Shown: piece by piece, positions 278 to 58,875 of the stretch
Layout: every line of letters begins with the position of its first letter
Position numbering within the stretch: position 1 is the stretch's first letter
Virus record (IMG/VR): IMGVR_UViG_3300029305_005387
From: a virus
Lineage: Duplodnaviria; Caudoviricetes
Strand: one strand, 5' to 3'
DNA length: 64,000 bases
Notes under the pieces: model-generated
Seen by the model: the letters and a program-made list of their open reading frames with translations, nothing else
The model's database searches: none
Told to the model about the DNA's origin: nothing
Translations under genes and position numbers: made by a program

Positions 278-332
278 AATGAAACCTCCTTTGACAATTT
301 TTGTAATACTTTAGACGTTGGTCAAGTCAGTC

Positions 333-345
333 AACGCTGTTATAA
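333..345 (+). promoter_or_regulatory. Late-type phage promoter motif AACG-N6-TAA
   Basis: aacgctgttataa. The same spacing recurs before several other genes. Confidence 0.5.
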
Positions 346-377
346 CTATTTTAATAGAAATGGAGTTGAGAAAATAT

Positions 378-3300: not shown

Positions 3301-6300
3301 ACCAAAGACATGAAATAGAAGAATTTGTAGCTATTGCTTCAAAGGTATCTTTGGATATTTATAATCTAAATGAAACAATTACTCAGTATTGGTCAGAGAC
3401 TCAGACTAATGGTGATGAGAAAATTATTTCTCATATGGAATTTGCCACAGAACGTATTTCTGAACTTGTAAAAGATCTTGATATATTTACAATTCATCAG
3501 GATAATTTAATTCAGTTAATTGATTCTATTAGAATGATGATTATTAACACAGAACCTTGTGGAATTAGTGAAAGAGAAGATTCATTTATAGAGACAATTG
3601 ATTCTAAACTTGATGAAACTGTTACATCTTTATCATATTTAACTGGTGAAAACAAGGGAGAAGAAGCAAAATCTCTATATAATAATATACTTTCATTAAC
3701 GAATGAATGGGAAGAATATGTTAGACAAGAGATTATTGTTCTGGAAAGAATTGGTTCTTTAGCTGCAGATCCTGTATTATTCCTTGAATTGATTAATAAA
3801 CTCAGTAACTATAATAAATCAATGATCGAATATATGAGGACTGTAAATAATGAATTTATTCCTGATATCGATACTCCTTCATATTCAGATATCTATGAAA
3901 TTAATCAGATTGAGTTAGTAACTGGAGGATTCAATAATAAGGTTGGTGATGAAGTATTTATACCTAACTTAGGTTCTTATAGAATCACTTCAGTAAGTGG
4001 AGAAGTAGCTACAGCAGAATCCATTGATAAACTTAATTATAGGAATACTTCATTCAGAAATCCTTGCTGGCAGAGCAATCTCTATGATGGAATTACTAAT
4101 GGAGATGGAATCGGTATATCTGTAAAGGCTATTTCTGCAACCAAACAGGTGATCATTAACGATACTTTAGCTGAACGATTTGTTTCTCGTATAAAAAATG
4201 TAGTTTATATGATAACTCGTGACGTTGAATTCATTAATCCTCATAACAATTCATATGTAGAGAATACAATTTCTACAATTCAAGATATTCAATCTGAATG
4301 GGAAAACATTCAATCTTTTTATGTAGATTATATGTCAGAGGGGATAAAGACAAGTTGTGTTGATATGATAAACAGTGTTTCAACTATACTTGAAGATCTA
4401 AATAATTTTATAAATGTAAGATCTAAAAATGATTTAACAACATTACTTTCAGATTTTGAAAACTTTATTTTTACTACTTATTCATTATTTGAATCAAATA
4501 GAAAAAATTCTCCAACTTATATCTATTTTGATAACAGATTGAGAGTAGTTTATAATGAAGGACTTGAATATAGAGGTAATGGAACTTCTTGGAATGATAA
4601 AGATGAATTAATCAATGTATTGAATAATTTGGAATATGAATTAGAACTATTCAATCGAAAAATTATCAAAGAATCTTCGGAAATGAATGGCATTAATAAT
4701 ATTATCACTTTATATGATTCAATGATAATTATGATTAATAATTTCAAAACAAATTTAGATGATACTTCATCACAACAGGAAATTGTTAGAAATAAAATCT
4801 CCGAAATATCATCTGATATTGATAACATTCCTCAGGAGTTTCATAGAGATATTTGGTATAATTTGCAAAATGTCGTAGTTGGTAAATCCGGTGCAGGATA
4901 TGATGTTGGTGATATCGTAGAACTTATTCCACAATTACCAAATATTTATGAGGAAGATCAAATCTTTATGATCATGAATGATGTTATTCTAATTAGAATA
5001 ACTCAGGTAAATGATAATGGAGAAGTATTAAAAGCAGAACCATTAATGAATTATGCAATACCATATCTAGTTTGGGGAGTAAGAGAAACAAAAACTAGAG
5101 TTGGTAATGGATCCGGTCTAGTTGTAAATGTTTATGCAAATGAAGTAACGTTGTCTGATAGTAAATTATTCCTTGATAAATCTTCTGATATAATTTTACC
5201 TAAACAATTTGATCAGAATGATTTATTGACATTTAAGTTTGAAAATATTCACGATCTTCCAATCGACTATGAAGTTTTCTTTGCTGGTAAACAGATGAGG
5301 GACTTTATTATTAGACACGAAAGTGTTAATAATCATTTATATCCTCAAGAGATTGATGTGATTTATTTAAATGCTAATGAAGTACTTGCATTAGGAGATT
5401 CATCAATTTATACTGAAGGAGAACATTATTTCGTATATAAACTTGATAGTGTTGAAATTTTAGATCCTGGTGCCGGTTATACTGAAGGACAAGAAATTAT
5501 TATTAATACTGGACAGTTAGCTTTAAAACTGAAAGTATCCAAGTTGACTAATGATCCATTAAAAGGTATCGCTGGTATTGAAATGATTTCTAATAAAACT
5601 ACCTTTAATGGAACTGATCCGACTTCAGATGAAGCATTCGTTGTCAAAGATACATTAAATAATATTGATGATGAGTTTCATGTTAGTGAATATGATAAAC
5701 TAACAGCTGAAGGATCTACAAAGGGTGCAGCAATAACACTCGATCCGGAAGATTATCCATTTACTTCCAGACGTTTTGATGATTTGGAAGATGGAGATCG
5801 TAATAAAACGTTTATGTATCCTGATGTAGAAAATGTTACTGATATTCATGGAGATCCAGATAATGGAACATATTTAGGAAGTAGAATAGATAACTCTGAA
5901 CATCCTATGAGTGATTCACGAGAATGGAATGGTATTATGAATACTATTTCACCTGCTGATCCTATAATTCCTGTAGAAAATAGAGTTCCAACTAGTAAAC
6001 CGATTAAAGGTGAATATCAGGATATTAAACAATTAAGAATTCATAATTCTGAAATTCCTAAAATTGAATCATTAACGGAAGAGTATATAGCTGATCTAGT
6101 AGATGGTTCAATTGATGCATCTGAACCAGGACCTTTTGAGGTACATGGAAAATCAATAGAAGGAATACCTGATGAAGATGTAATTGGAATGATTGAAGGA
6201 ACATATGTACCAAAAGGTACTCCGACAGTTACAGTTGATGGTGAGATTATTAAAGCTATTGATTTTACAAAAGTTAGGGATCTCATTTATGGTAATATTG

Positions 6301-42855: not shown

Positions 42856-44877
42856 ATGTCAGATAATACAAACCTAATGCGTGAACTTTATATCCTTGAG
42901 GATGAAAACAATCCTTATGGGTCTAGATCTAAAGGTATATGGCCACCTACTATATTAGATCAGGTATATGATAACTTATCTCCTACAAATAAAACACTGA
43001 GAACTATTTTAGAAGAATTAAGACATGATATTCTTACTGGGGGAATTGGCAATATTACATTTCCAGTCACAACTGTTAATGGAATGAATGGAGATGTAAT
43101 TATTAATGCGAAACATTTAGGTTTAGAAAATGTTGATAATACATCTGATAATGAAAAACCATTATCAAAACCTCAACGTCTTGCAGTGATGGAACTTCTA
43201 AAAGGATTCAAATATGAAGTAGATTTAAGTGATTTATATGACCATATTAGAGACTCAAATAATCCTCATGGAATAACTTTTGAACACATTAATCGAAATA
43301 ATGAGATTGGAAATTATATCTCTCAATATATCTTGAAACATGAAAATGATCAAACATCTCATCAAGATATTAGAAATTTAATCAAGGATATTGATTATTC
43401 TGTTAAAAATATTCACAATGATGTTGAAGAAAGAATTTCTATTGCTCTTAGAATTTTGGATCAACATTATGCAGATGAAGGAGCACATTCACCTTTATTT
43501 GATAAAAAAGAAGATGTATTGAATAAAGTATTTGATTTTGAAAATGTTGATCATAAACGATATCCATCCGTAAGAGCAGTTGTAGATTATGTAACATCCG
43601 TAGCTAATACTTTAAGATCTGAGATCACTACAATAGAAAACTGGATAGATGATATTATCGTTATTAGATCAAGAGATGATTTGCCATCTGCAAGTATTAA
43701 GACTTACCGTAAAGCATATTTCATTCGTAGAGGATTAAATAATAATGATGAGATTGCCATTTGTCGAATAAATCCTGATAATACAACTTATTCTTGGGAT
43801 ATTTCTACATTTGATACGTATGCAAAATTTGATGAATCTTATTTTATTAACACAGATGATGGTTTATCTCTAAATACAACTAATATAGCTGAAACATTAA
43901 TCAATGAAGGAAATATGAATAAAGGTATTTCTGAAATTGTTAATTCAGTATTATTTGAATCCACTGCAATAATCAATTTCAATATTAATGAACTAGGAGA
44001 ATTAACTGTTGAATATGATGAAAGATATCCTGATCCTATTCTATATATTGATGAAAATGGTGAATTGATACTAGAAGCAGATGATGGAACTCTTTCTGAA
44101 TTCTTGGTTGAAAATTGTAACTTCGAAATTGTAAATGGACGATTAATTCTTACAACTGAAGATATTGATATTGTAAATATTGGACATGGAAAGATTGCTA
44201 ATTACTATACGAAGGATGAAATCGATGAATTTTCATTCATTAATAGTATTCAGATATTATCAGGAACAGAGAATGGAACCATTCGATATTATATAAATAA
44301 CGATATATCTACAATGTCTCCTGATATTAAAGTTACTGGTATTAATAAACTCGCATTTCTTGAAAAGGTAACTGAAAATGAAATAGAAGACAACTCAGTC
44401 CATTCTCAACACATTCTAAACAGGGCAATTCAATATCGTCATATGGGAGAAAAGGCAGTATCTGCTGAAAATATGAGAGGATCTTACAATACTATATTTG
44501 GCAATGTTGAAGATTCTCAAGGTAACACGGTTAGAGAGATTCCTTTGACATATCTTGTAGAAGTTTTTCAGCCATATATTAAAGATTTTATTGCTCAGTA
44601 TTTAACATCTTCTCCTGAAATGAAGTCAATACTAAAGGATATCTATGAAGAAATAATTGCTGAGGAAATCATGAGTGAAGCTCCTATTACATTAACCATT
44701 CAAGATGGTTCATTAATAGCAACTTATGATGAGACTCAGTATAGTGAACCTGATATTGAAATTGATAAAGACGGGTATTTGATTTTAAATTCATCAGATA
44801 CTGCAATTGATCAATACTTGGAAAGTATTTTCTTTAATATAGTTGATTCAACGTTAGTAATGACCGTAAATGAATAA
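42856..44877 (+). CDS. Tail-fibre-like virion protein
   Basis: VTTVNGMNGDV, LGLENVDNTSDNEKPLS, NPHGIT motifs of phage fibres. Shares N-terminal blocks with 54358..58875. Confidence 0.75.
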   Translation: MSDNTNLMRELYILEDENNPYGSRSKGIWPPTILDQVYDNLSPTNKTLRTILEELRHDILTGGIGNITFPVTTVNGMNGDVIINAKHLGLENVDNTSDNEKPLSKPQRLAVMELLKGFKYEVDLSDLYDHIRDSNNPHGITFEHINRNNEIGNYISQYILKHENDQTSHQDIRNLIKDIDYSVKNIHNDVEERISIALRILDQHYADEGAHSPLFDKKEDVLNKVFDFENVDHKRYPSVRAVVDYVTSVANTLRSEITTIENWIDDIIVIRSRDDLPSASIKTYRKAYFIRRGLNNNDEIAICRINPDNTTYSWDISTFDTYAKFDESYFINTDDGLSLNTTNIAETLINEGNMNKGISEIVNSVLFESTAIINFNINELGELTVEYDERYPDPILYIDENGELILEADDGTLSEFLVENCNFEIVNGRLILTTEDIDIVNIGHGKIANYYTKDEIDEFSFINSIQILSGTENGTIRYYINNDISTMSPDIKVTGINKLAFLEKVTENEIEDNSVHSQHILNRAIQYRHMGEKAVSAENMRGSYNTIFGNVEDSQGNTVREIPLTYLVEVFQPYIKDFIAQYLTSSPEMKSILKDIYEEIIAEEIMSEAPITLTIQDGSLIATYDETQYSEPDIEIDKDGYLILNSSDTAIDQYLESIFFNIVDSTLVMTVNE

Positions 44878-44880
44878 TGG

Positions 44881-44911
44881 TATGGAGAGGCTTATCATAA
44901 GCCTCTCCATA
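44881..44911. terminator. Intrinsic terminator hairpin
   Basis: tatggagaggcttat-c-ataagcctctccata. Confidence 0.75.
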
Positions 44912-44954
44912 CTTTACTATTTTATTAATTATTCTCATTTTGGAGGGATTAAAT

Positions 44955-47261
44955 ATGCAACATTTTAAGTTAGAAAAAGATTGTGTATTGTACAAAACAC
45001 AATTTGAAAAGTATATGCTTGATATATTTGGAGACCACCGTCTGGATAGATATTCTTTAGATTTAGATGGAATTTTATTTAGAATTAAATATATGACTAA
45101 GCATAAAAGAGATCTTGATAAGATTCCAGAATTACAAGAGAAATTTACTAATATTGCAATCCAGTTAAGAAAATGCTTTGGTGAATTTCTCTTTAACTTC
45201 TTAGCTCAGATTATAACAATTCCTGAACCATTTAAACTTGACAATATTGTTGATATTCTTGCTCATGATGTGAAGATGGATCCGAATTATGTAAAGTTTA
45301 AAATGATATTAATTTCAGATAGTAAAGAATATATTGAATATGTAGATTCAGCTTTTCCAGATAATGAAGTATTTAATATGTTTCCAAACGAATACTTTAG
45401 ATTTTATACTGATTCATACAATGATGGAATTGCTAAAGCATATCCAGAACTATTTGAAAATAAACATCAGGACAAGATTGGTGTTGGAGCTGATGGAGAT
45501 GTATTCTGCCACAACTTTACTTTTCAGACAGGAGAACGTTGTTCACTGAACTGTACGTATTGTGTTCCAGATGGTACCAAAGTTACATTACCAGATTATT
45601 CAATGAAAAATATTGAAGATATCCAAGTAGGTGATAAAGTATTGGCAGTAGATGAACATCATCCTGTTGGTAAAGAACATACATTACGAGAATCTGAAGT
45701 TACACATGTTTTCAAAAGGGAAACAAATGGTTATTTTAAGATATCTCATAGAGCTTTAAAAGAACCTATTTGTATTACTGGTGAGCATCCTGTAAAAACA
45801 GAGAGACGTGGATGGATACCTGTAAATATGTTAAGATCAACGGATAAAATTTTGATATCTTCAATAGATCCATATGATTTTTATTCTACGAATTTTAAAA
45901 ATCCATCATTTATAATGAATAAAATCTCAAATTCATATCATTACTATAAAACGCAATACATTGGTGGATTTAAACTTGAAAATATTAAAGAAAAATGTAC
46001 AGTGTATAATTTGGAAACAACTGAACATACTTACGCTATTGGAAGATTATTAGTTCATAATTGTTATCAGTTTAATAAATCAGAAATGAGAATGAGTTTT
46101 GAAACTGCAAAGAAGTTTATTGATAATTTATTGACTGATCAATATGGATATATTAATCAATATAATTCTCCTGCCATCATTATGGAGTTTATTGGTGGCG
46201 AACCTTTGCTTGAAATTAATCTTACAAGAAAGATTTATGAATATTTTCTTGATAGATGTTACGAATTAAATCATCCTTGGTTTACTCTTCATAGACTTTC
46301 AATATGTTCTAATGGTATGCAATATTTCGATAAAGAAGTTCAAGATTTTTTTAAAGAATATTCTTCACAAATTTCATTCAATATTTCCATTGATGGAAAT
46401 AAAGAATTACATGATGCTTGTAGAGTTCAACCAAATGGAGAAGGAAGTTATGATATTGATATATGTGCACTGAATCATTATAATAAACATTTTACACCAG
46501 AGAGAAATTCTAAGATGACTTTGGCTCCATCTAATATTTCATATCTATTTGATTCAGTCGTAAACTTTATTAACAACGGAATGACAGTTATTAATATTAA
46601 CTGCATTTTCGAAGAGGGTTGGAACCAAGAGACTGCACGAATTGAATATTATCAGTTAAAGAAATTAGCTGAGTATATATTAGAGAATGATTTAGATCAT
46701 CTTTATATAGCCATATTTAATGAACGTCAAGAAGACGTGATGCCTAAAGAACAGGATGGATCATTTTGTGGAGGTGCCGGTTCCATGCTTGCTATGAGAC
46801 CTAATGGACAGTTTTATCCATGTATTCGTTACATGCCATCTTCTGTTGGTAATAATGTAAAAGATCTTTGTATTGGAACTGTCGATACAGGTATTCATGG
46901 ACGAGAAGAAGGATCTGATATCATTAGAATGTTAGATAGAATTACACGACGTGCACAAAACAATGACATCTGTTATGAATGTCCAATTTCAAATGATTGT
47001 GCTTCTTGTTTAGCATTAGGACATACAGTATTTGGTACTCCTAATAAGAGAACAAACTTCATCTGTATCCAAATGATTGCTGAGGCGTTAGCTAATGTAT
47101 TTTACTGGAATGCATTATTAATCAAACATCCAGAATATAATCTCGATGTAAGAAAAAATAATGTTCCAGATAAATGGGCTCTCTTAGTAATAGATGAAGA
47201 AGAACTTGATTATTTGAAAAAACTTGAAGCATATGCAATGATCATAAAGATGGAAAGATAA
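44955..47261 (+). CDS. Radical SAM/SPASM peptide-maturase-like enzyme (CXXX-repeat target type) containing an intein
   Basis: After splicing it reads CSLNCTY|CYQ (CxxxCxxC). EFIGGEPLL, SNG, ISIDGNKELHDACR. SPASM cysteines FCGG...YPCIRY...CYECPISNDCASC...FIC. Confidence 0.92.
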   Translation: MQHFKLEKDCVLYKTQFEKYMLDIFGDHRLDRYSLDLDGILFRIKYMTKHKRDLDKIPELQEKFTNIAIQLRKCFGEFLFNFLAQIITIPEPFKLDNIVDILAHDVKMDPNYVKFKMILISDSKEYIEYVDSAFPDNEVFNMFPNEYFRFYTDSYNDGIAKAYPELFENKHQDKIGVGADGDVFCHNFTFQTGERCSLNCTYCVPDGTKVTLPDYSMKNIEDIQVGDKVLAVDEHHPVGKEHTLRESEVTHVFKRETNGYFKISHRALKEPICITGEHPVKTERRGWIPVNMLRSTDKILISSIDPYDFYSTNFKNPSFIMNKISNSYHYYKTQYIGGFKLENIKEKCTVYNLETTEHTYAIGRLLVHNCYQFNKSEMRMSFETAKKFIDNLLTDQYGYINQYNSPAIIMEFIGGEPLLEINLTRKIYEYFLDRCYELNHPWFTLHRLSICSNGMQYFDKEVQDFFKEYSSQISFNISIDGNKELHDACRVQPNGEGSYDIDICALNHYNKHFTPERNSKMTLAPSNISYLFDSVVNFINNGMTVININCIFEEGWNQETARIEYYQLKKLAEYILENDLDHLYIAIFNERQEDVMPKEQDGSFCGGAGSMLAMRPNGQFYPCIRYMPSSVGNNVKDLCIGTVDTGIHGREEGSDIIRMLDRITRRAQNNDICYECPISNDCASCLALGHTVFGTPNKRTNFICIQMIAEALANVFYWNALLIKHPEYNLDVRKNNVPDKWALLVIDEEELDYLKKLEAYAMIIKMER
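45561..46061 (+). mobile_element. Mini-intein (167 aa, no endonuclease) inserted in the radical SAM cluster motif
   Basis: Begins CVPDGTKV...IEDIQVGDKV, block B ITGEHP, ends VYNLETTEHTYAIGRLLVHN followed by extein Cys. Confidence 0.93.
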
Positions 47262-47266
47262 AATGA

Positions 47267-47298
47267 TACACAGGAGAGGGATTTCCCTCTCCTGTGTT
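47267..47298. terminator. Bidirectional terminator hairpin
   Basis: acacaggagaggga-tt-tccctctcctgtgt between convergent genes. Confidence 0.8.
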
Positions 47299-47318
47299 TA
47301 TACACTAACTTATGATAA

Positions 47319-47846
47319 TTAAGCAGTTGTATCAGGTTCAGTTGTTTCTGTACCATCTTCTGCAGGTTCTTCAGATTCATTAGAATCTTCTGCACCTGCA
47401 TCGGTACCAGCGTCTTCATCTTCTGCATCCTTAGTATAAGTTACAGTAACTTCAACGCCTTCAGCTACCATATCACCAGTCAATAAAGTCTGATCAGCAG
47501 TATAACCTACGAAACTAGGAGGTGCATACGTGTATTCACCGCCAACATTGAACATTCTTTCTACAGGATCAGGAACTGTTAGATCTTCAGGACCTTCGAA
47601 TGTTACTTTAAGAGCTGCACGAGCTGCAACTACATCGATGTCATTACCAGGACCTTCTTTTTCTTCAGATGCTTCAGCTTCAGGATCTTCCATTTTAGCT
47701 ACAAGCTCAGGAACAATCTGTTTGAATTCCTCACGAGTGATCTGAATTCCAGGTACACTGTTGAAAAGATAATGCAAAGCATTAAACAATTCATTTGCTG
47801 CACCGGCAGTATCACCAGCAGCAATACATTCATTAATTTTAGCCAT
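47319..47846 (-). CDS. Acidic protein with a MucBP-like domain
   Basis: Start re-called to ATG 47846. LKVTFEG...GGEYTYAPPSFVGYTAD...GDMVAEGVEVTVTYTK. Confidence 0.65.
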   Translation of the reverse strand: MAKINECIAAGDTAGAANELFNALHYLFNSVPGIQITREEFKQIVPELVAKMEDPEAEASEEKEGPGNDIDVVAARAALKVTFEGPEDLTVPDPVERMFNVGGEYTYAPPSFVGYTADQTLLTGDMVAEGVEVTVTYTKDAEDEDAGTDAGAEDSNESEEPAEDGTETTEPDTTA

Positions 47847-47933
47847 ATTAAAGACTCCTTTCATGATTTACTTTTGTTTTATCCAGTTTATTTCCCAGGA
47901 TTAATTATCTGTAATTAGAAAATTATGAATGAA

Positions 47934-47946
47934 AACGACTATTTAA
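47934..47946 (+). promoter_or_regulatory. Late-type promoter motif AACG-N6-TAA
   Basis: aacgactatttaa, 30 nt before the GGAGG-preceded ATG 47976. Confidence 0.5.
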
Positions 47947-47975
47947 TTATTGATTTCTATCGTGGAGGTGTTAAT

Positions 47976-50225
47976 ATGAATAAAGATCTTTATTCAAATC
48001 AAGAATTCACTGAATTAAAACACCGATTAAATCAGGAAATACAGAGAAGAAGTACATTTTCTTGGTGGGATCCGCTAACAACACCATCTGTTGGAGAAGA
48101 TAAATCATCTCCAATGTCATTACCTGATATCGGTCAACGAGTTTCAGTTGATGATAAAACATATACAATCAATAATCCTTCTGAGGGATCTATTGAAAGG
48201 ACTAAAAATATTCATTATCAAAATCATGGAGATAGTCCATCAGGTGATGATAGTGAATTTATTTCAACAGTTCCAAATACATCTGCAGCTAAAATGGATG
48301 CAGATGAAATGAGAAACTTTTTGGTTGGTTTATCTAAAATAAAAGATATCAATCTTTTTTATGGTAGAGATGAAATCCCAGGTCTTGCTTATAGAGATCC
48401 ATCTGGAATAGAAGAAGTACTAACAAGTGCTGAAAAAGATAAATTACATGAATATATTGTAGGTGAATATTCAAAGAATGATCCTAATAATGGAGCTAAC
48501 GATCATTTAGACGGAAATTATCCTAGTAATATTCACGAAGTTCATTACGATATTGAAAATGGAATTGCTGTAATGAAATCCGGAGAATATGATGGAGAAG
48601 AATTAAACACCCATGATGGTTTAGGTCCTAATAATTTCTTTGATGATTATGGGGCAGAACCAGGAGATGGTGATTTTCATCCTTATAACAGAGGATATAC
48701 TCCACAAAGTAGACGAGATTGGAAAATACATAATAATCAACGTAAAACAGAAAAGGTTTATGTTACTGAAGGAGGAATACCAACTTCTTCTTTTGGACCA
48801 AATCCTAGAAATCCAGTCCAAGGTAAAGAATATAAATCTCGTCCAGTATTTAAAGGATCTCCAAGTACTTGTCAGGTTGCTTGTACTGGTCTATGTAGCG
48901 TTACTTGTGATGATCAATGTTCAGAATCTTGTTCTTCAACATGTTGGAGTCGATGTGGTAATGCTTGTACTTCTTCATGTGGTAATGCTTGCACAGGTTG
49001 TAGTACTTTATGTTATACATCTTGCAAAACTAAATGTGAAAACATTTCTGGATATGCTTGTGTAACTGCTGGAGCAAAAGCTATTAAAATAACAACATCT
49101 GGTGGCACTAATGGTGTACCTGCAAAAAATGAAATCCAAGCAGAAACATATTCATGTCAAGGATGTTCATATAGTTGTCAATTTTATCCTAATAAAAAGA
49201 CAACTTGTTGGGATGCTGGATGTATGGGTAATTGTTTTATCTCTTGTAACACAGCATGTTCAACTGCCTGTACTGGTGGTTGTATTAATAATACAGCTGA
49301 AGAAGGTACTTCATATAAAACTGGTAAAGGCAGAGGATGTTCTTCTGGATGTACATTAAACTGTATTGGAAATTGTTCTGGGACATGTGAAGGACAATGT
49401 GTGACAACTTGTTGGCATGCATGTAAAGAAACATGTACTGACAATTGTACATTCGAATGTTCTACAAATTGTGGAAGTGGTTGTGCTAGTGGATGTAAAG
49501 ATGGTTGTACAGGATGTACAGGAACTTGTGAATCTTATTGTGAAGGACAAACCGATTCAATAGGATGTACAGGTTGTAGCACAAAAGGCGGTTGTACATC
49601 TACTTGTCAGCATGGCTGTAATAAAAATTGTGTTGGTATAGGATGTAGATCAATTTGTGGTATTGAAGCTGCTGGAGCTTGTGAAGCTAATTGTAGAATC
49701 AATTGTATGAGTTCTAGTTGTTCAGCTATGTGTTCTAATCAATGTTCAGATCAATGTACAACATGTGTCAATACCTGTGGATTTGGATGTGGGTATTGTT
49801 CTTCCGTATGTTCTTCTGGTTGTGATGCTGCTTGTGAAATCACGTGTAGTGAGAAGTGTGAACATTCTTGTGAAAATAATTGTGTTCAGTCTTGTAGTGA
49901 AGAATGTGGCGGATGTTCTTCATTATGCTTCTCATGTGTTGGAATGTGTATTGGAGTTTGTAGTGTACATTGTGAAAATGGATGTACCAGTTGTTCAGTA
50001 ATGTGCGGATGGTGGTGTGATTCTTCATGTAATCAACAATGCTTTGCAAATTGTGACACTTTCTGTATATCTGATTGCTCTGGTTCTTGTATAACATTCT
50101 TAATGAGTAAAGCTAATACTACCATTGGACCTGAAAATAACCCTACAGCTGAAGGATATAAGTGTCCTCATCCTTCTAATAGAGAAGAGGAACGTGAATC
50201 ATTTATTATTAGGAAGGATGAATAA
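47976..50225 (+). CDS. Giant CxxxC-repeat cysteine-rich protein, putative radical SAM substrate
   Basis: Start re-called to ATG 47976 (GGAGG SD). ~300-aa Cys-free N-terminal region, then ~407 aa with about 88 Cys mostly spaced CxxxC. Confidence 0.88.
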   Translation: MNKDLYSNQEFTELKHRLNQEIQRRSTFSWWDPLTTPSVGEDKSSPMSLPDIGQRVSVDDKTYTINNPSEGSIERTKNIHYQNHGDSPSGDDSEFISTVPNTSAAKMDADEMRNFLVGLSKIKDINLFYGRDEIPGLAYRDPSGIEEVLTSAEKDKLHEYIVGEYSKNDPNNGANDHLDGNYPSNIHEVHYDIENGIAVMKSGEYDGEELNTHDGLGPNNFFDDYGAEPGDGDFHPYNRGYTPQSRRDWKIHNNQRKTEKVYVTEGGIPTSSFGPNPRNPVQGKEYKSRPVFKGSPSTCQVACTGLCSVTCDDQCSESCSSTCWSRCGNACTSSCGNACTGCSTLCYTSCKTKCENISGYACVTAGAKAIKITTSGGTNGVPAKNEIQAETYSCQGCSYSCQFYPNKKTTCWDAGCMGNCFISCNTACSTACTGGCINNTAEEGTSYKTGKGRGCSSGCTLNCIGNCSGTCEGQCVTTCWHACKETCTDNCTFECSTNCGSGCASGCKDGCTGCTGTCESYCEGQTDSIGCTGCSTKGGCTSTCQHGCNKNCVGIGCRSICGIEAAGACEANCRINCMSSSCSAMCSNQCSDQCTTCVNTCGFGCGYCSSVCSSGCDAACEITCSEKCEHSCENNCVQSCSEECGGCSSLCFSCVGMCIGVCSVHCENGCTSCSVMCGWWCDSSCNQQCFANCDTFCISDCSGSCITFLMSKANTTIGPENNPTAEGYKCPHPSNREEERESFIIRKDE
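48870..50090 (+). repeat. Protein-level CxxxC/CxxC repeat array
   Basis: For example CQVACTGLCSVTCDDQCSESCSSTCWSRC. TGT recurs with 12-nt periodicity while the spacer codons are diverged. Confidence 0.9.
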
Positions 50226-50227
50226 AT

Positions 50228-50494
50228 ATGGGAAGAATAAGTGAAGTAAAATATATACAAGTTGATCCAATTGATTATGATGTACATGAAGCTGCTCAAC
50301 ACTATTTTCATTCTAATGTAATTCCGATTCATGAAATGTTTTATGTTGGATATGAAGAATATGAATTAAAACAAAATTCTATTCGTAATAACATCACTAG
50401 AGATAATAGGGACGATAGTCTAAAATTGAATACGTCTACATTTGGGATATCGATAAAAAATAATCAAGTCATTCTGGTAATCGATAAAGCATAA
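50228..50494 (+). CDS. Small hypothetical protein coupled to the Cys-rich gene
   Basis: 88-aa ORF starting 2 nt after the upstream stop, AAGGA SD. Confidence 0.7.
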   Translation: MGRISEVKYIQVDPIDYDVHEAAQHYFHSNVIPIHEMFYVGYEEYELKQNSIRNNITRDNRDDSLKLNTSTFGISIKNNQVILVIDKA

Positions 50495-50497
50495 CAT

Positions 50498-50530
50498 TTA
50501 AGAGAGGAGCTATATAGCTCCTCTCTTAAT
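50498..50530. terminator. Bidirectional terminator hairpin
   Basis: ttaagagaggagcta-ta-tagctcctctcttaa. Confidence 0.8.
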
Positions 50531-50535
50531 CATCT

Positions 50536-50835
50536 TTACATCATTTCATATACTTGAATTGAATTTCCGGAAACTTCATATCCATCATAATTCCAGACAT
50601 ATTGAGAAAATCTAAAATGTTCAGGAACAAACTCATTTGTGATTCTGTATTTGATAGCTTCAATTTTAGAAGTAATCGGAATAAGAGATTCTTCAAGCTT
50701 CTCAAATTTATTAGGATCATCTGCTACCTGTGTTAATACTCTCGTACGGATTGTTTCCTTTGTTAGTAATTCAGATAATTCTCTAGCAAGTTCATCAGGA
50801 ATTGTAAAATTTCCTCGTAATACTTGATTGATCAT
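50536..50835 (-). CDS. Small helical protein, candidate CXXX-repeat modification system accessory protein
   Basis: 99 aa with GAGGAGG SD. Helical hairpin (FEKLEESL) ending in WNYD plus a beta strand, similar in size and layout to the accessory protein as recalled. Confidence 0.5.
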   Translation of the reverse strand: MINQVLRGNFTIPDELARELSELLTKETIRTRVLTQVADDPNKFEKLEESLIPITSKIEAIKYRITNEFVPEHFRFSQYVWNYDGYEVSGNSIQVYEMM

Positions 50836-50856: not shown

Positions 50857-51843
50857 TCATATTAACTTCAGTAGTTCCCCTCTGAAACTTTTAATATTCT
50901 TAGTTTCTTTTACAACATCTGAAGCAGAAATATTGATAATATTGTTACCAGCTAGAAGAGTAATACACATGAAAATCAAGTATTCAATGTTATCAACTGC
51001 AAGTGTAGAAGGAATATAATAATAATTGATCCAATCATTTAGTAAAGTTCCTAAGTGTGCAGATCTCATACGAGGAGAAGCTGTTTTAAGTAAATCAATT
51101 AATTCACTGACCTTGTGAGGATTTGCATTATCATATTCATGAACAATTTCATTAGCTCTCATTTCATCAAGATATTTAATATGAGCTTTTGAAATTGTAT
51201 TAATATTTTCTGCAGTATCATTAGATTCAAAGATATTCTCTAAGAAAAATCTATTAATCCAATATTGAATAGTATCGAATGTGATCTTATCTGCAGCTAC
51301 AGAAAATTGTCTGTTAATAATTCTCGTAAAGAACTTTGTGTAAATTTCCATCAGAATTTTCTGTAGATATTGATTTCTTGCAAGATTAGCATAATTATTC
51401 TTTAATCCATTTGCAATCAATGCACCAGTTAAAAGATCTCTCAATACAGGTGCTTGCATTGATAATACACCATCTCTGGAAACCTGAATGTACTTATCAA
51501 CAAACACGTATGTTACAAATCCTCGTTTTGTTTTAAGTGTAATGAATGGAATTGCTTGTGTTAATGATAATGATTGAACGTTATTGTAGATTAAAACTAC
51601 TCTTTCTTCATCAAATGCTTTCATTGCAGCTCTTGTTAGAGAATCACTAATCTGCTTGACAGCAATATATGCTGCTTCAATATCCTCATTTGTGAGGTGT
51701 TTAGCAGTTTTAATTAGATCAATAGCTTTGTCTAATGTAGTTCTACTTTTATCCATGTGATTTATTCCACTGGATCCACTTCCATCTCCATTAAATACTT
51801 CAGAGTGTACTAATGAAGATTCCATATAACCTGTAATAGCCAT
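50857..51843 (-). CDS. Hypothetical protein (probably late/virion)
   Basis: Start re-called to ATG 51843 (AGGAG SD). GACA-N6-TAA motif at 51868-51880. Confidence 0.75.
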   Translation of the reverse strand: MAITGYMESSLVHSEVFNGDGSGSSGINHMDKSRTTLDKAIDLIKTAKHLTNEDIEAAYIAVKQISDSLTRAAMKAFDEERVVLIYNNVQSLSLTQAIPFITLKTKRGFVTYVFVDKYIQVSRDGVLSMQAPVLRDLLTGALIANGLKNNYANLARNQYLQKILMEIYTKFFTRIINRQFSVAADKITFDTIQYWINRFFLENIFESNDTAENINTISKAHIKYLDEMRANEIVHEYDNANPHKVSELIDLLKTASPRMRSAHLGTLLNDWINYYYIPSTLAVDNIEYLIFMCITLLAGNNIINISASDVVKETKNIKSFRGELLKLI

Positions 51844-51886
51844 AAAGTTAAACACTCCTTTCTATAATTAAGTTTCTGTCTTGACT

Positions 51887-54357: not shown

Positions 54358-57300
54358 TTATGAATAACGGAACCAGATATCACCATTCTGTCCATCGGTA
54401 GGTCTTCTATAAGAAATAATAGTATTTCTAATAGCTCTTCTTTCAAGATCAGAATGCTTTTTAACTGTTGTATATGCAGGTAATTCAATTTCTTGAACAA
54501 GTTTATCTCCATTGATGGATTCATCTTGCATTTTACTCATAGAAATAGATTTATCTGCAATCTTTTCTTCTGTTACAGATTCATTTCTAATTTTACTATT
54601 ATCGATAGCATTATCTAGAATATGAACTGTATTGATCATTTCTTCATTAGCAAGTTTCTGAGCACCGATTGAAAAATCTTGAATCTTATTACCTTTGATA
54701 GAATTCATTTGAATCTTATCATCATTAATACTTTCATTTTCAATCATTTCAGAATTAACTTTAACCCAATCAACTTTACCAGTTTCTTTATTCATAGAAA
54801 TAACTGTATTTGGATCTTCAGAATCCTTGAATAAATCAGGGGTTAAAGTTTCTTTTTCAACCATTTCTCCAGTTATATTTGTCCATACTGGGTCAGTATT
54901 CGCATCAGTAACTGCAAGTACTTTATTAGGTTGCTCACTAGTGAATAATTTCTTACCTGTAACTGCACGATCGTTGATATAATCTGTAATTACAGAATCT
55001 TCTTTTAGTATTGCACCCTTTTGTTCATTATATCCATATCCAGTGATGTCAATCATTGGTTCTGATTCAGGTTCAATTTCTCCAGTAATGATACCACGAA
55101 TTCTAGATACATCAATAGGAGCAATCTCGTTTTCTTTTACTTCAAAGGAACTAGAAGCATATGTAACTTCTAATGTTCCGTCAACCATGTCACTGATATC
55201 TTTATTAGAAATACTTAGTACTTCATCACCATAGTCAGTGTACATAGATGGATTATTTGTAACTACTTGATCATTATTAAGTATAGCATACATTGTATCT
55301 TGTGAAATAGGAATAATATAAGAGTAATCAACTCCAGAACCATTTCCACATCCACAATTACAAGACGAACCAGAATTTCCTTCAAGAGTAAGATTAATAC
55401 TACCATCTTCAGTATCTTCAACAGAAACTTCACCATCGATAATAGCACGAATTCTTTCTGCAGAAATTGGTTCTATAACAATATCACCAATTTGTGTACT
55501 TTCAGAAGATTCCTCAACAATTAATTCCTCATCAACGATAGCTTCGAGAATAGATTCATCAATACGATCAAATTCAACGTCATTATACGTAAATGATTCA
55601 TTTGAACTTGCTTCAGTTTCACCTGCAAGTATACTTAGAATGGTTTCATCACTGATGTCATCTATGGTGATATTTCTAGTAACACTAGAACTTGAATCAT
55701 TACCAGAATCTCCAGTACCTGGTGAACCACCGCTATTCAATCCACCATAACAAGGAATTCTTGATTGTAGATTAGAATTGAATTTTGCCAAATGCTCGAT
55801 AATTCTATCAATAACCCACTGACAGTCCGGTATTAATTCACCATCACCATTATCATCACTTGCTTGTGGTGCTGGACGAACTTCTACTTTCGGTGAACCA
55901 AGTAATTCAATACTTCTTACCAGCTTATCTCTGGTAATAGAAGCATTTTCAATCATGTCCTCGACTACTTTCATATATTGAGGAGCTGAACCGGCTTCAC
56001 TTACTCCAAGAATTACATTAGATACTTCCGAAGATTTAAGTTTAGATATATCTATTAATCCATCTGGTAAAATTACTTCTCCTTCATGAGAATAATTACC
56101 CATCATAGATTTAATAGTTTTTCGCACCCAAGCAGTATCAGGAATAGAATTATCATTTGAATATTCGGCTGGTCTATCGGCAATTCGTGTATTACCATAA
56201 AATAGTAAATCGTGTTTTAATTTAGAATGACCAATAGATCCATCTTCAATAAACTCTTCCGTGATCTGAATAAAATCAGGTACATCTCCAATATTAACAG
56301 AACCTAATACTCTGAAAGGTCTTTCACTTCTGAATATTTTTTCACCAGTAACAGACATATCTTCGATCATATCTGTTTGAATTTGCATCCATTTTATTTG
56401 ATCACTATCTTTTCCGATACCAATAATTCTACTCTTTATATCAGGAATTGCTAATTTGCTTATTTCTATTGAATGATCGGCAATATGTTCATTAATAATA
56501 ACCTCTGGTAGAATATGCGTAGAATCAATTATCTGCTTTGCTAAATATTTAGAGGTGATAGATTCATCTTTAATGTTAGAAATGTCAAACTTAACATCTT
56601 CTCCTAACATTTTAGAAGTAATCTTCATATATTTAGCAGGTGTATTAGCATCTTCAACAGCAAGTACCATATCAGAGATACTACTACTAAATATCTTCTC
56701 ACCAGTAACGGAATAATCCTCGATGAAATCTGTAGTAAGTTTCATCCATTTTGGAGTTCTATTAATTAAATCAAAACCCAAAATAGATTTATTGATATCA
56801 GGAATTGCTAGTTTTTCTTCAGTTATGGATTCATCAATAATAGCATCAGTTCCAACAGAAGCTGTAGCCATCATTTCTCTTGTGATCTGAGAATATTGAG
56901 GGTGTCCACCATCTGGACCAACAGCTAGTACTCTATTAGGGATTTCAGATTTAAAAATCTTTTCACTAGTTACAGAAGATTCTTCAAGAGCTAATGTAGA
57001 AACAGAATCTTTATCGAGAACTCTTTTAGATACTGATCTATTCGCTAATTTTTCTTCAGTAACTGCATTAGATTTAATATTGTGGGAATCTACAGATTCA
57101 TCATCCAACATATCTGAATTAATTCTGCCCCAGTAAGCATCTCCATTAACTTCAGTAACTATTAAAGCTCTATTTTTCAATGGAGAAGAAAAAAGATGTT
57201 CTCCGCTTACTGAATGCGGAGCAATATTTTTTCCAGTAATAGTAATATTGCTGAATAACTTACGAACCCATGATGTATCAGGAATACTGTTATCATCAGA

Positions 57301-58875
57301 TTCTAATACAGGAGATTCATTTAATTTAACATTACGCAATACTGCATATTGAGCAATCTTATCTCCAGTAACTGCATTTTCTCTGATGTTATTTGTATCA
57401 ACTGCAGTATCTGCAATTTTTTCATGAGTTACTGATTTATCTGATAATTTGGATGTAGATATAGCATTATCAGCAATCATCTCATTAATTACTTGCATCC
57501 ACTCTGCATCTGATCCAGCTTCTTTTACAGCTAAAATCCTATTAGATATTTCAGATGTAAATAATACTCTACCTGTAAGTGTATGAGTTTCAATATTAGA
57601 ATCTTTAATAGTTCCATCTGCAATCTTTTCTGTTGTAATAGATCCATCAGCATAGTTGATGGTAGTAATTGTTAAATCAGCTATCTTATTACCAGTAATA
57701 GATTTATCGGCATACACAGAATTACCTAAAGAATTATCTAATATCTCATTAGAAGTAATGCTCTTTGGAATAATTGAAGCACTTATAAGATTTGCATCTT
57801 TATTTACTTCAATTTTGATATGGGTTCCAATTGTACCTATATATTTCTGAACTAGATTCTGAATACTGATACGCTTAGAAGATCCATTTAATTCAGTAAT
57901 AACCAATTCATTAGTTTCCTGATCTACAGTAATTTCATCAACTAAACCATCAGTAACAATTGGAATAGATACGACTGAAGTATCATTAAAAGATATCAAT
58001 AATCTACCTTTTGTTTGATCATAATTGATATCAATTACATATTTCAAGTCACCATATAAACCACTAATTCCAGAAATTAATGCATTTAAATTATCTAATG
58101 CATTCTTAGTTGCTCTAGAAATAGGTTTATCAATATCGGAAGTATTATCTACATTACTTAACCCAATCTGATCTTTAGTTACTTCATGTGGATTATTTTT
58201 ATCAAGAGTATGATTTTCAAAAGTAACTAAATCTACTGCACCAATCTGTTTAGCTGTTACATGATGAGGATTTTCATAATCAGATATATGTTTAGTAATA
58301 TTAACTCCGAATTGAGTAGAATCAATTTCTGTTATTATATTAGACATTTCTTTTCTAATATCAGAAATTAATTTTGTTATCGCAGCTTGAGAAACAATAC
58401 CTGTTTCATCATCGCCTAATTCATTATATATTTCTGGCCTACCAACAATTGCAGTCCATAGTAATTTGGTCGTGTCATCACCAGTAGCATTTCCATTATT
58501 ATCTACAAAGCCATATTTACGAAGTAATTCACCTACAGCTTTTTCTGTTGGAATTCTATCACTTCGTTGAGAAGCTTCATCGTATGGAATTTTAGTACTA
58601 ATTTGAATAGATCCAATAGCACCAGCTGCTCCACCATAAGTTACTAAATTATCAGCTGATTTAGCAGGGATAAGAGGTTGACGTCCATTCAAATCAGAAT
58701 TAATTTGTTCTAATACTTCTGCTAATGTAGGACTATCCTCATCGTACATATCCTGTCGTACAGCTTTAAATACAGTAATAGGAAATGTGTTCTTATAATT
58801 TAGATTAGGTGGAGGAGTGGCGTTGGGATCTATCCACACACGTGATTGAATAATTTCATGTCCTATTAGTCCCAT
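54358..58875 (-). CDS. Large repeat-rich tail-fibre protein
   Basis: NPHxVTxxQIG and LSNVDNTSDIDKPIS motifs, many (S/A)(I/V)TxxK(I/L)ADxS decamer repeats, C-terminal PTDGQNGDIWFRY. Confidence 0.8.
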   Translation of the reverse strand: MGLIGHEIIQSRVWIDPNATPPPNLNYKNTFPITVFKAVRQDMYDEDSPTLAEVLEQINSDLNGRQPLIPAKSADNLVTYGGAAGAIGSIQISTKIPYDEASQRSDRIPTEKAVGELLRKYGFVDNNGNATGDDTTKLLWTAIVGRPEIYNELGDDETGIVSQAAITKLISDIRKEMSNIITEIDSTQFGVNITKHISDYENPHHVTAKQIGAVDLVTFENHTLDKNNPHEVTKDQIGLSNVDNTSDIDKPISRATKNALDNLNALISGISGLYGDLKYVIDINYDQTKGRLLISFNDTSVVSIPIVTDGLVDEITVDQETNELVITELNGSSKRISIQNLVQKYIGTIGTHIKIEVNKDANLISASIIPKSITSNEILDNSLGNSVYADKSITGNKIADLTITTINYADGSITTEKIADGTIKDSNIETHTLTGRVLFTSEISNRILAVKEAGSDAEWMQVINEMIADNAISTSKLSDKSVTHEKIADTAVDTNNIRENAVTGDKIAQYAVLRNVKLNESPVLESDDNSIPDTSWVRKLFSNITITGKNIAPHSVSGEHLFSSPLKNRALIVTEVNGDAYWGRINSDMLDDESVDSHNIKSNAVTEEKLANRSVSKRVLDKDSVSTLALEESSVTSEKIFKSEIPNRVLAVGPDGGHPQYSQITREMMATASVGTDAIIDESITEEKLAIPDINKSILGFDLINRTPKWMKLTTDFIEDYSVTGEKIFSSSISDMVLAVEDANTPAKYMKITSKMLGEDVKFDISNIKDESITSKYLAKQIIDSTHILPEVIINEHIADHSIEISKLAIPDIKSRIIGIGKDSDQIKWMQIQTDMIEDMSVTGEKIFRSERPFRVLGSVNIGDVPDFIQITEEFIEDGSIGHSKLKHDLLFYGNTRIADRPAEYSNDNSIPDTAWVRKTIKSMMGNYSHEGEVILPDGLIDISKLKSSEVSNVILGVSEAGSAPQYMKVVEDMIENASITRDKLVRSIELLGSPKVEVRPAPQASDDNGDGELIPDCQWVIDRIIEHLAKFNSNLQSRIPCYGGLNSGGSPGTGDSGNDSSSSVTRNITIDDISDETILSILAGETEASSNESFTYNDVEFDRIDESILEAIVDEELIVEESSESTQIGDIVIEPISAERIRAIIDGEVSVEDTEDGSINLTLEGNSGSSCNCGCGNGSGVDYSYIIPISQDTMYAILNNDQVVTNNPSMYTDYGDEVLSISNKDISDMVDGTLEVTYASSSFEVKENEIAPIDVSRIRGIITGEIEPESEPMIDITGYGYNEQKGAILKEDSVITDYINDRAVTGKKLFTSEQPNKVLAVTDANTDPVWTNITGEMVEKETLTPDLFKDSEDPNTVISMNKETGKVDWVKVNSEMIENESINDDKIQMNSIKGNKIQDFSIGAQKLANEEMINTVHILDNAIDNSKIRNESVTEEKIADKSISMSKMQDESINGDKLVQEIELPAYTTVKKHSDLERRAIRNTIISYRRPTDGQNGDIWFRYS

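Follow-up and report, generated by a model that had tools for sequence, protein, structure and literature searches.

Why should a phage encode a radical S-adenosylmethionine (SAM) enzyme with a SPASM domain beside a protein with almost ninety cysteines, and what would the one do to the other? The question is raised by a locus in a 64,000-nucleotide stretch of viral DNA (IMG/VR record IMGVR_UViG_3300029305_005387; the whole stretch is called the window below), where an earlier note, written from the letters alone, had proposed that the enzyme cross-links a virion protein. The computational analysis reported here favours, on balance, a three-component CXXX-repeat protein-maturation system of a gut jumbo phage, whose product would be a thioether-stapled tail or adsorption protein. 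That enzyme, target and accessory protein make up one system is highly probable, given the family assignment and the retention of the parts together in relatives; the families themselves are already catalogued by database curators. The parts of the locus are these (aa, amino acids; ORF, open reading frame):

44955..47261, + strand: radical SAM/SPASM maturase precursor, 768 aa from ATG, CXXX-repeat-target family (TIGR04115)
45561..46061, + strand: mini-intein of 167 aa without an endonuclease domain (Hint, PT-HINT and Intein_splicing matches)
47976..50225, + strand: target protein, 749 aa, with its ATG after the ribosome-binding site GGAGGTG (PF27846)
47976-48869, + strand: Cys-free part of the target, residues 1-298, of which the first ~95 (47976-48260) are a conserved, putative recognition/anchor domain
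48870-50165, + strand: CxxxC-repeat region of the target, residues 299-730, followed by a short tail
50228..50494, + strand: orf88, 88 aa, in translational coupling with the target gene (its start is 3 nt past the target stop), a conserved companion
50536..50835, - strand: orf99, 99-aa helical protein, the probable accessory by a profile-profile match to a prophage accessory family

The translation of 44955-47261 bears out the radical SAM/SPASM enzyme seen there in the earlier note, and in an NCBIfam scan its best match is TIGR04115 ('radical SAM peptide maturase, CXXX-repeat target family'; 317 bits, E 2e-94, curated cut-off 350 bits), followed by the models for PapB (128 bits), CcpM (80), the QhpD type (68) and the SCIFF maturase (63), with a match of only 33.6 bits to TIGR04463. 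The PapB-family model (NF047865) has a cut-off of 340 bits, which neither the window protein nor its orthologues (141-158 bits) reach, and the anaerobic sulfatase maturase model TIGR03942 (cut-off 349) gives 44.3 bits. With 317 bits for TIGR04115 against 44 for the anaerobic sulfatase-maturating enzyme (anSME) family, and with the thioether synthase CteB as the best match in the PDB (phmmer 6e-14, Foldseek 4.6e-13), the enzyme falls, as had been supposed, into the peptide/protein-modifying SPASM group and not among the sulfatase maturases, and the family names given in the earlier note (TIGR04114 for the target repeat, TIGR04115 for the maturase, TIGR04116 for the accessory protein) are correct. 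Several close homologues have already been named CXXX-repeat-target family maturase by JGI and NCBI.

The maturase consists of a ~186-aa N-terminal extension, a radical SAM core split by the intein and a SPASM domain. The auxiliary-cluster pattern that we tested for the SPASM domain (C-x(n)-G-x4-C ... CX2CX5CX3C ... C) is recognizable as C610...G-QFYP-C628, then C678-x2-C681-x5-C687-x2-C690 and finally C709, and all of these Cys, together with C555, are invariant in 8 orthologues. The 186-aa extension is present in all jumbo-phage orthologues and is confidently folded in an AlphaFold2 model of the orthologue P0156 (predicted local distance difference test, pLDDT, 81.5), where it shows an order of strand, helices and beta-hairpin similar to that of the accessory protein. 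We considered whether the extension might be a fused accessory and set the idea aside as speculation, the hhalign comparison with the prophage accessory family giving only 6%.

The CX3CX2C radical SAM cluster motif is present once the intein is removed (CSLNCTY-[167-aa intein]-CYQFNK), the insertion lying between CSLNCTY and CYQFNK in such a way that the +1 extein residue is the third cluster-binding Cys. The insert reads C/VPDG...ITGEHPV...LLVHN/C (slashes mark its borders), so that Cys1, the TxxH of block B, the C-terminal HN and the +1 Cys are all present; its Hint-family matches fall under the Pfam cut-offs. It is absent from the ~603-aa orthologues P0126, P0156, P0166 and P0227, where the junction closes precisely to ...CSLNCTYCYQFNK, and because these shorter proteins read straight through at this point, the insert is, judged by its residues, a class 1 mini-intein for which splicing is predicted. 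The TIGR04115 alignment of the window enzyme begins only at model position 14 because the 167-aa insert follows CSLNCTY and cuts off the first model positions.

The same motif holds a second intein point, since in the relative L006 (4809-7064) the element sits one Cys earlier (CSLN/C...VHN/CTYCYQ); the inteins of the window (45540-46070), L003 and L004 have the third Cys as their +1 residue, and most orthologues have no intein. Hint/LAGLIDADG intein domains are also carried by some target homologues of ~1250-1340 aa (P0010, P0018, P0023, P0047, P0064, P0076 and P0100), and inteins have therefore invaded both the enzyme and the substrate gene in this phage group. An intein within the cluster-binding motif of the maturase could serve as a redox-sensitive switch on enzyme maturation.

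The target gene begins 715 nt downstream of the maturase gene and encodes much what had been described, a protein of ~750 aa with about 88 Cys in CxxxC repeats: the actual figures are 749 aa, 89 Cys, all within residues 299-730, and 68 CxxxC units (68 of the 88 Cys-to-Cys gaps are exactly 4), which is far beyond chance, Cys making up 21% of the 432-residue repeat region. The precomputed Pfam 38 assignment puts PF27846 ('rSAM target Cxxx repeat') on the window's own target protein. In the Atlas most clusters of this family are viral, and its name there is 'rSAM target Cxxx repeat / Modification target Cys-rich repeat domain'. A large protein database contains 154 target homologues, and among the matches listed nearly all of 120 carry PF27846. 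The NCBIfam scan gave no match of the window target to TIGR04114 at E<=0.1, and the orthologue in the relative G001 reaches 17 bits where the model's cut-off is 20. Across 52 target homologues that are only 55-67% identical, hardly any Cys column varies, and the targets of the relatives keep 87-89 Cys and 67-68 CxxxC units at lengths of 712-1072 aa, the differences in length being insertions in the Cys-free part and C-terminal extensions. Between the Cys, x1 is rich in S/T, x2 is G/S/N and x3 is S/T/N/G. A fold search with a model of the target against PDB representatives returned Z <=4.6, nothing above background.

Both small ORFs reported next to the target, the coupled one of 88 aa (50228-50494) and the convergent one of 99 aa (50536-50835, - strand), were found. 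The 46 homologues of orf99 all lie on the same kind of contigs as the window. By hhalign, the orf99 family (47 sequences) matches the accessory family of the prophage systems described below (89.7%, E 1.9e-6, 76 columns, a common W-x-x-D motif; reversed control 0.4%), and that prophage family matches four true TIGR04116 members (91.4%, E 9e-7), whereas the orf99 family set directly against TIGR04116 gives 1.2%, so that the link to TIGR04116 is transitive only. True TIGR04116 members in short-peptide genomes score 56-79 bits (cut-off 50 bits); neither orf99 nor orf88 matches the model even at E<=10, and there is no match in G001. A profile of the prophage accessory family (the ~100-aa ORF directly upstream of the maturase gene), run against 927 six-frame ORFs, had orf99 orthologues in its top six. 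Because the link runs through the prophage family and there is no direct signal, we regard orf99 as a probable accessory protein that is a distant relative of TIGR04116 (CXXX_rpt_assoc) and not a TIGR04116 member. For orf88 no family was found in NCBIfam, Pfam or PHROGs; its homologue stands directly downstream of the target in L001, L002 and L007, including L007, where the target is ~60 kb from the maturase gene. The ORFs between target and accessory in prophages look heterogeneous, and in one locus (L028:4181-4837) the accessory gene is duplicated in tandem to 219 aa with two helical-hairpin/W-x-LDF modules.

Are the parts kept together in related phages? Enzyme and target, expected in the earlier note to recur as a pair, co-occur in all relatives that are sufficiently complete: they are <=8 kb apart in four IMG/VR relatives (L001, L002, L004 and L006), and the complete 289-kb genome G001 retains all three parts, with the target at ~95 kb, the accessory at ~106 kb and the maturase at ~159 kb. 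That the parts are kept there though not adjacent is good evidence of a functional link. The half genome G002 gave no target match. Many homologues of the target, the maturase and orf99 also share longest contigs of identical size (for example 289103, 224525, 190681, 167472 and 263364). In G001 the accessory module (L092:436-1785, 105.5-106.8 kb) is part of a 449-aa open frame, of which it takes up the C-terminal 92 aa; the first 355 aa show no relation to the 332-aa gene of the window. The frame represents a fusion, or else two genes that have no stop between them. A search of the phage collection with the locus DNA and the whole target protein found no match, the low-complexity filter probably masking the repeats, and the enzyme found only uncultured faecal contigs and unrelated radical SAM genes of enterobacterial jumbo phages.

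These data leave little room for the reading in which enzyme and Cys-rich protein have no functional link, as chance neighbours or as remnants decaying since an intein-disrupted enzyme would be inactive: although the cluster motif is interrupted and the TIGR04115 score is under the curated cut-off, this is barely credible (and was already disfavoured), as jumbo phages, a small phage and dozens of prophages all retain the pair or the trio, the intein keeps Cys1, the TxxH block, the terminal HN and the +1 Cys, the catalytic Cys are all invariant and intein-free orthologues exist.

A wider-family scan, in which one genome per species was used, recovered 80 maturase loci, almost all from Clostridia, and a CxxxC ORF stands beside the enzyme in 67 of them. 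The larger group, 46 loci, has targets of about 150-670 aa with up to 145 Cys (L042) and a common N-terminal domain (N-domain), whose consensus, '...F..LK..VKAEM.RR.G.GSL..Y.G..YDF...P..G..I..EH..K...', aligns with the N-domain of the window target ('QEFTELKHRLNQEIQRR...P.SLPDIG.RVSVDDKTYTIN'). These loci are prophage tail modules, with baseplate wedge (phrog_6), tail-fibre, minor tail and tail proteins on either side and an endolysin after them; baseplate, tail-fibre, tail or endolysin neighbours were found in at least 29 of the 46. The 30-kb faecal phage contig MT835573 likewise has target, accessory and maturase between its tape-measure and tail-fibre genes. The smaller group has 57-100-aa peptides in tandem or targets with twin-arginine translocation (Tat) signals, together with true TIGR04116 proteins. 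In a quick IQ-TREE analysis the short-peptide systems form a separate clade (99 in the Shimodaira-Hasegawa-like approximate likelihood-ratio test), and the jumbo-phage enzymes form their own clade among prophage-type enzymes; the position of this clade as sister of Oscillospiraceae prophages has a weak support of 82, the root of the tree being arbitrary. The closest non-jumbo relatives of the window enzyme are in Clostridia prophages, between baseplate/tail-fibre and lysis genes, and cultured Clostridia with prophage versions include Neglectibacter timonensis, Desnuesiella massiliensis, Eubacterium pyruvativorans and Anaerobacterium chartisolvens. The target is indeed far larger than an ordinary precursor of a peptide that the ribosome synthesizes and that is modified after translation (RiPP), as the earlier note had stressed; it is not unique in this, protein-sized targets being the rule in the phage/prophage branch.

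An N-domain profile matched 599 cluster representatives among 1.84 billion, and among the matches listed of at least 130 aa, 91 of 108 carry at least six CxxxC units. In P0359 the Cys repeats come last: between them and the N-domain lies a stretch with matches to PHROGs of 'host range and adsorption', tail and PblB type and a weak match to CBM_4_9; P0294 is a natural fusion of target and accessory. P0349 and P0386 have another domain ahead of the N-domain, which is therefore better understood as a domain for recognition or anchoring than as an N-terminal leader that is cleaved off. The Clostridia prophages, the small faecal phage and the targets fused to adsorption-type domains together strengthen the association with tail genes that had been drawn from the window. 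Such a trio among the tail genes of many phages of anaerobes suggests that the phages cross-link a tail or adsorption protein of their own.

Several variants of the target were seen besides. In P0410 and P0406 the target-type N-domain is followed by Cys-free sequence, which in P0410 runs into phrog_38190 (a phage family), which suggests that other phage proteins, too, can gain the N-domain by shuffling; among the remaining matches to the N-domain that lack Cys, some look like frameshifted gene calls. In the prophages L015, L026, L029, L030, L031, L036, L037 and L039 the target is split into two ORFs, the first with the N-domain and few Cys and the second almost wholly of CxxxC repeats. The 6.8-kb contig L011 (MT837480, 'Bacteriophage sp.') has a Tat-signal CxxxC target and a maturase in the bacterial short-peptide clade, and looks bacterial rather than phage-derived.

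How might such a system work? The maturase would be made as a precursor in which splicing of the mini-intein, whose anatomy is described above, restores CX3CX2C. The spliced SPASM enzyme would probably hold three [4Fe-4S] clusters and, with the 99-aa accessory, may recognize the N-terminal domain of the target and then work along its 432-residue CxxxC region. The products would most likely be thioether cross-links from Cys sulfur to carbon, as in PapB, CteB and QhpD, by which the repeat region would become a rod or knot, stapled covalently and resistant to reduction and to proteases. Among the neighbour genes scanned with PHROGs we saw no transporter and no leader peptidase, in line with the earlier note, nor is an exporter encoded nearby; the product probably retains its recognition domain. 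Its use as a tail or adsorption component of the virion, which we consider probable, is suggested by the gene context in three unrelated phage backgrounds and by the domain fusions. That the modification is thioether cross-linking we regard as an evenly balanced proposition, which draws on analogy with PapB, CteB and QhpD and with CrpC/CrpA of another SPASM family; alpha-carbon (sactionine-type) links or other chemistry are possible.

Several findings weigh against this proposal. At 317 bits the window enzyme stays below the curated TIGR04115 cut-off of 350, as do three of its four intein-free orthologues scored (328, 329, 344 and 360 bits; one is above it). No fixed acceptor residue is visible between the target cysteines, and the AlphaFold2 model of the target (52 homologues) has a mean pLDDT of 44, with 20-35 in the Cys region, and no confident fold. 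On the side of the accessory, orf99 has no direct TIGR04116 match. The parts are scattered in G001, and in jumbo phages the order of the genes tells little about what they do. The phage collection contains no cultured phage with the system, and in the open-access full-text literature we found neither biochemical or proteomic data for any TIGR04115 system nor a paper on TIGR04115 systems, PF27846 or radical-SAM modification of phage structural proteins.

The rival that survives best keeps the same enzyme-target pair, and with it a modified phage structural protein, and changes the chemistry to formylglycine, dehydro residues, C-C or other links, or epimerization. SPASM enzymes perform many reactions, ChlB (9GMC) and anSME (4K39) rank just under CteB in the fold search of the maturase, and both the lack of a conserved acceptor position within CxxxC and the lack of a paper characterizing a TIGR04115 member in the open-access literature sit easily with this idea. 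We nevertheless hold it to be unlikely, since the best-scoring characterized families (PapB, CcpM, QhpD and the SCIFF maturase) are all Cys-thioether formers and the near-complete invariance of the Cys fits Cys as the reacting residue.

Another reading takes the Cys-rich protein out of the virion: it could be a giant RiPP-like antimicrobial, or an effector of host manipulation or superinfection exclusion, released or intracellular, whose gene lies near tail genes only by accident. The related short-peptide systems (57-100 aa, in tandem, some with Tat signals) do resemble classical secreted RiPPs, but they form a separate clade, and no signal peptide, protease or transporter was seen nearby. 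Morons are often found at the tail-fibre/lysis junction of prophages and gene order in jumbo phages is loose, as G001 illustrates; against this, the site between baseplate/fibre and lysis genes recurs across many unrelated prophages, not only prophages but also lytic-type jumbo phages retain the system, and targets are fused to domains of adsorption and carbohydrate-binding type. Taken together, these observations make an effector quite unlikely.

Very unlikely, in our judgement, is a repeat region that acts as a metal- or iron-sulfur-binding scaffold of metallothionein type, which the enzyme would need as a partner or would modify at a few sites. Its extreme Cys density (21% of the region) and the capacity that unmodified CxxxC arrays could have to chelate metals are in keeping with a scaffold, as is the metal-related role suggested for CrpA by the authors of PMC13692751. 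The strict co-retention with a dedicated maturase and accessory, the tail-module context, and the 4-residue spacing that is kept over 400 residues and is common to short targets of the same maturase family speak against it.

The surroundings of the locus in the window comprise the following features:

42856..44877, + strand: tail-fibre-like gene, 673 aa (weak N-terminal match to the tail-fibre family phrog_35419, E 2e-5)
44879..44913, no strand: terminator-like hairpin between the fibre-like gene and the maturase gene (16-pair stem, then a run of T)
47268..47297, no strand: bidirectional terminator-like hairpin after the maturase gene (13-pair stem, 8 GC pairs)
50498..50529, no strand: bidirectional terminator-like hairpin closing the target-orf88 unit (14-pair stem)
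50857..51855, - strand: virion structural protein gene, 332 aa, upstream of orf99 (phrog_21032 'virion structural protein', E 9e-14)
54358..58875, - strand: tail fibre gene, 1505 aa (phrog_892, 1.3e-33, and phrog_28766, 1.4e-25, both tail fibre)

The earlier note had placed the locus between two tail-fibre-like genes, a description that holds firmly for 54358-58875 (phrog_892, 1e-33) and only weakly for 42856-44877 (phrog_35419, 2e-5). A homologue of the latter gene also lies 5' of the maturase in L001 and L006, and the 332-aa gene is syntenic in L001 and L002. From the hairpins after the fibre-like gene, the maturase gene and orf88 we conclude that the maturase gene forms a unit by itself and that the target gene and orf88 form a second. 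The late-type promoter motif claimed for the Cys-rich gene was not confirmed: TTAATTAT lies upstream of both genes, but the window has 14 copies of it where chance would give 20. The k-mers enriched 5' of genes are mainly Shine-Dalgarno sequences, and a sigma-70-type scan found fewer sites than in shuffles. Between maturase and target, at 47319-47864 on the - strand, lies an acidic 181-aa protein that is conserved only in L006 and therefore probably stands outside the modification system; it matches MucBP just below the threshold (E 2e-4, 22.3 bits; cut-off 23) and could be a decoration that binds mucin or surfaces. A 2839-aa ORF at 318-8837 (+ strand) has no PHROG match at E<=0.001.

The window has ~30% G+C and encodes a beta-type protein of a multisubunit RNA polymerase (matches to phrog_2986 and phrog_2962). 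Among cultured phages, Fusobacterium and AR9-like jumbo phages come nearest, with an identity of only 28-34%; the close relatives are uncultured contigs of up to ~297 kb, of which G001 is a complete genome with terminal repeats, and near-identical DNA occurs in animal faeces and gut metagenomes from 13 studies, no RNA run being listed among the sequencing runs that contain it. The polymerase gene, the jumbo relatives and the distribution in gut metagenomes thus identify the source as an uncultured jumbo phage of gut anaerobes.

If the proposal of a stapled tail or adsorption protein is right, a virus particle would here, for the first time, be seen to be built by means of radical-SAM (RiPP-type) cross-linking. 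An orphan family defined in databases (TIGR04114-6/PF27846) would gain a function, it would be explained how phages of strict anaerobes can stabilize extracellular proteins without disulfides, and protein engineering could turn with interest to a natural system that places dozens of cross-links on a single polypeptide; once chemistry and virion location were confirmed, it is the biological role that would be new for these known families. More tentatively, and with somewhat less confidence than in the thioether chemistry, we suggest that phages of strict anaerobes, from ~40-kb prophages to ~290-kb jumbo phages, build a tail-fibre or adsorption part from a radical-SAM-stapled Cys-repeat rod; RiPP-type chemistry would then be a widespread and so far overlooked route to virion proteins, the protein-sized phage form being the main CXXX-repeat branch and the short-peptide bacterial systems a side branch.

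How does the system compare with those already known? It is closest to the computationally defined CXXX-repeat peptide system (TIGR04114/TIGR04115/TIGR04116, PF27846), with which it shares the maturase family, by best hidden Markov model (HMM), the CxxxC target repeat and an accessory that is likewise small and helical and is related to the window's through an intermediate family. In the classical members of that system the targets are peptides of 57-100 aa, frequently in tandem copies or bearing Tat signals, and the accessory is a true TIGR04116 protein; the window has a 749-aa target with an N-domain of ~95 aa, an enzyme with a 186-aa N-terminal extension and an intein, an accessory too divergent for the HMM, and phage genes in a tail-gene neighbourhood. 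The ranthipeptide system PapB/PapA (freyrasin) and the thioether system CteB/CteA (SCIFF) likewise pair SPASM radical SAM enzymes with Cys-rich substrates, and PapB is the second-best HMM (128-158 bits) and CteB the best solved structure for the window enzyme, which is far below the cut-offs of both families (340 and 425) and hence not a member of either. Their substrates, PapA and CteA, are short peptides in which the acceptors follow a defined pattern (Cys-X3-Asp/Glu or Cys...Thr), whereas the window target has no visible fixed acceptor. In pyrroloquinoline quinone biosynthesis the stand-alone leader-binding protein PqqD serves the SPASM enzyme PqqE, and the window too has a separate ~100-aa protein beside a SPASM enzyme without a recognizable fused recognition element; the likeness is one of analogy only, orf99 being a predicted helical hairpin with a C-terminal W-x-x-D strand and PqqD a winged-helix RiPP recognition element. 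Finally, the SPASM enzyme CrpC of Methanococcus voltae (TIGR04463) installs ranthionine thioether links on CrpA, a Cys-rich protein of 28.8 kDa whose N-terminal region engages the enzyme and for which a protease or exporter is not evident (PMC13692751, 2026). Although CrpC/CrpA belongs to the TIGR04463 family, is archaeal and cellular with no virus link, and has 17-residue repeats with C-X-X-Q/D, it resembles the system of the window in that a SPASM enzyme acts on a protein-sized, repeat-containing, Cys-rich substrate.

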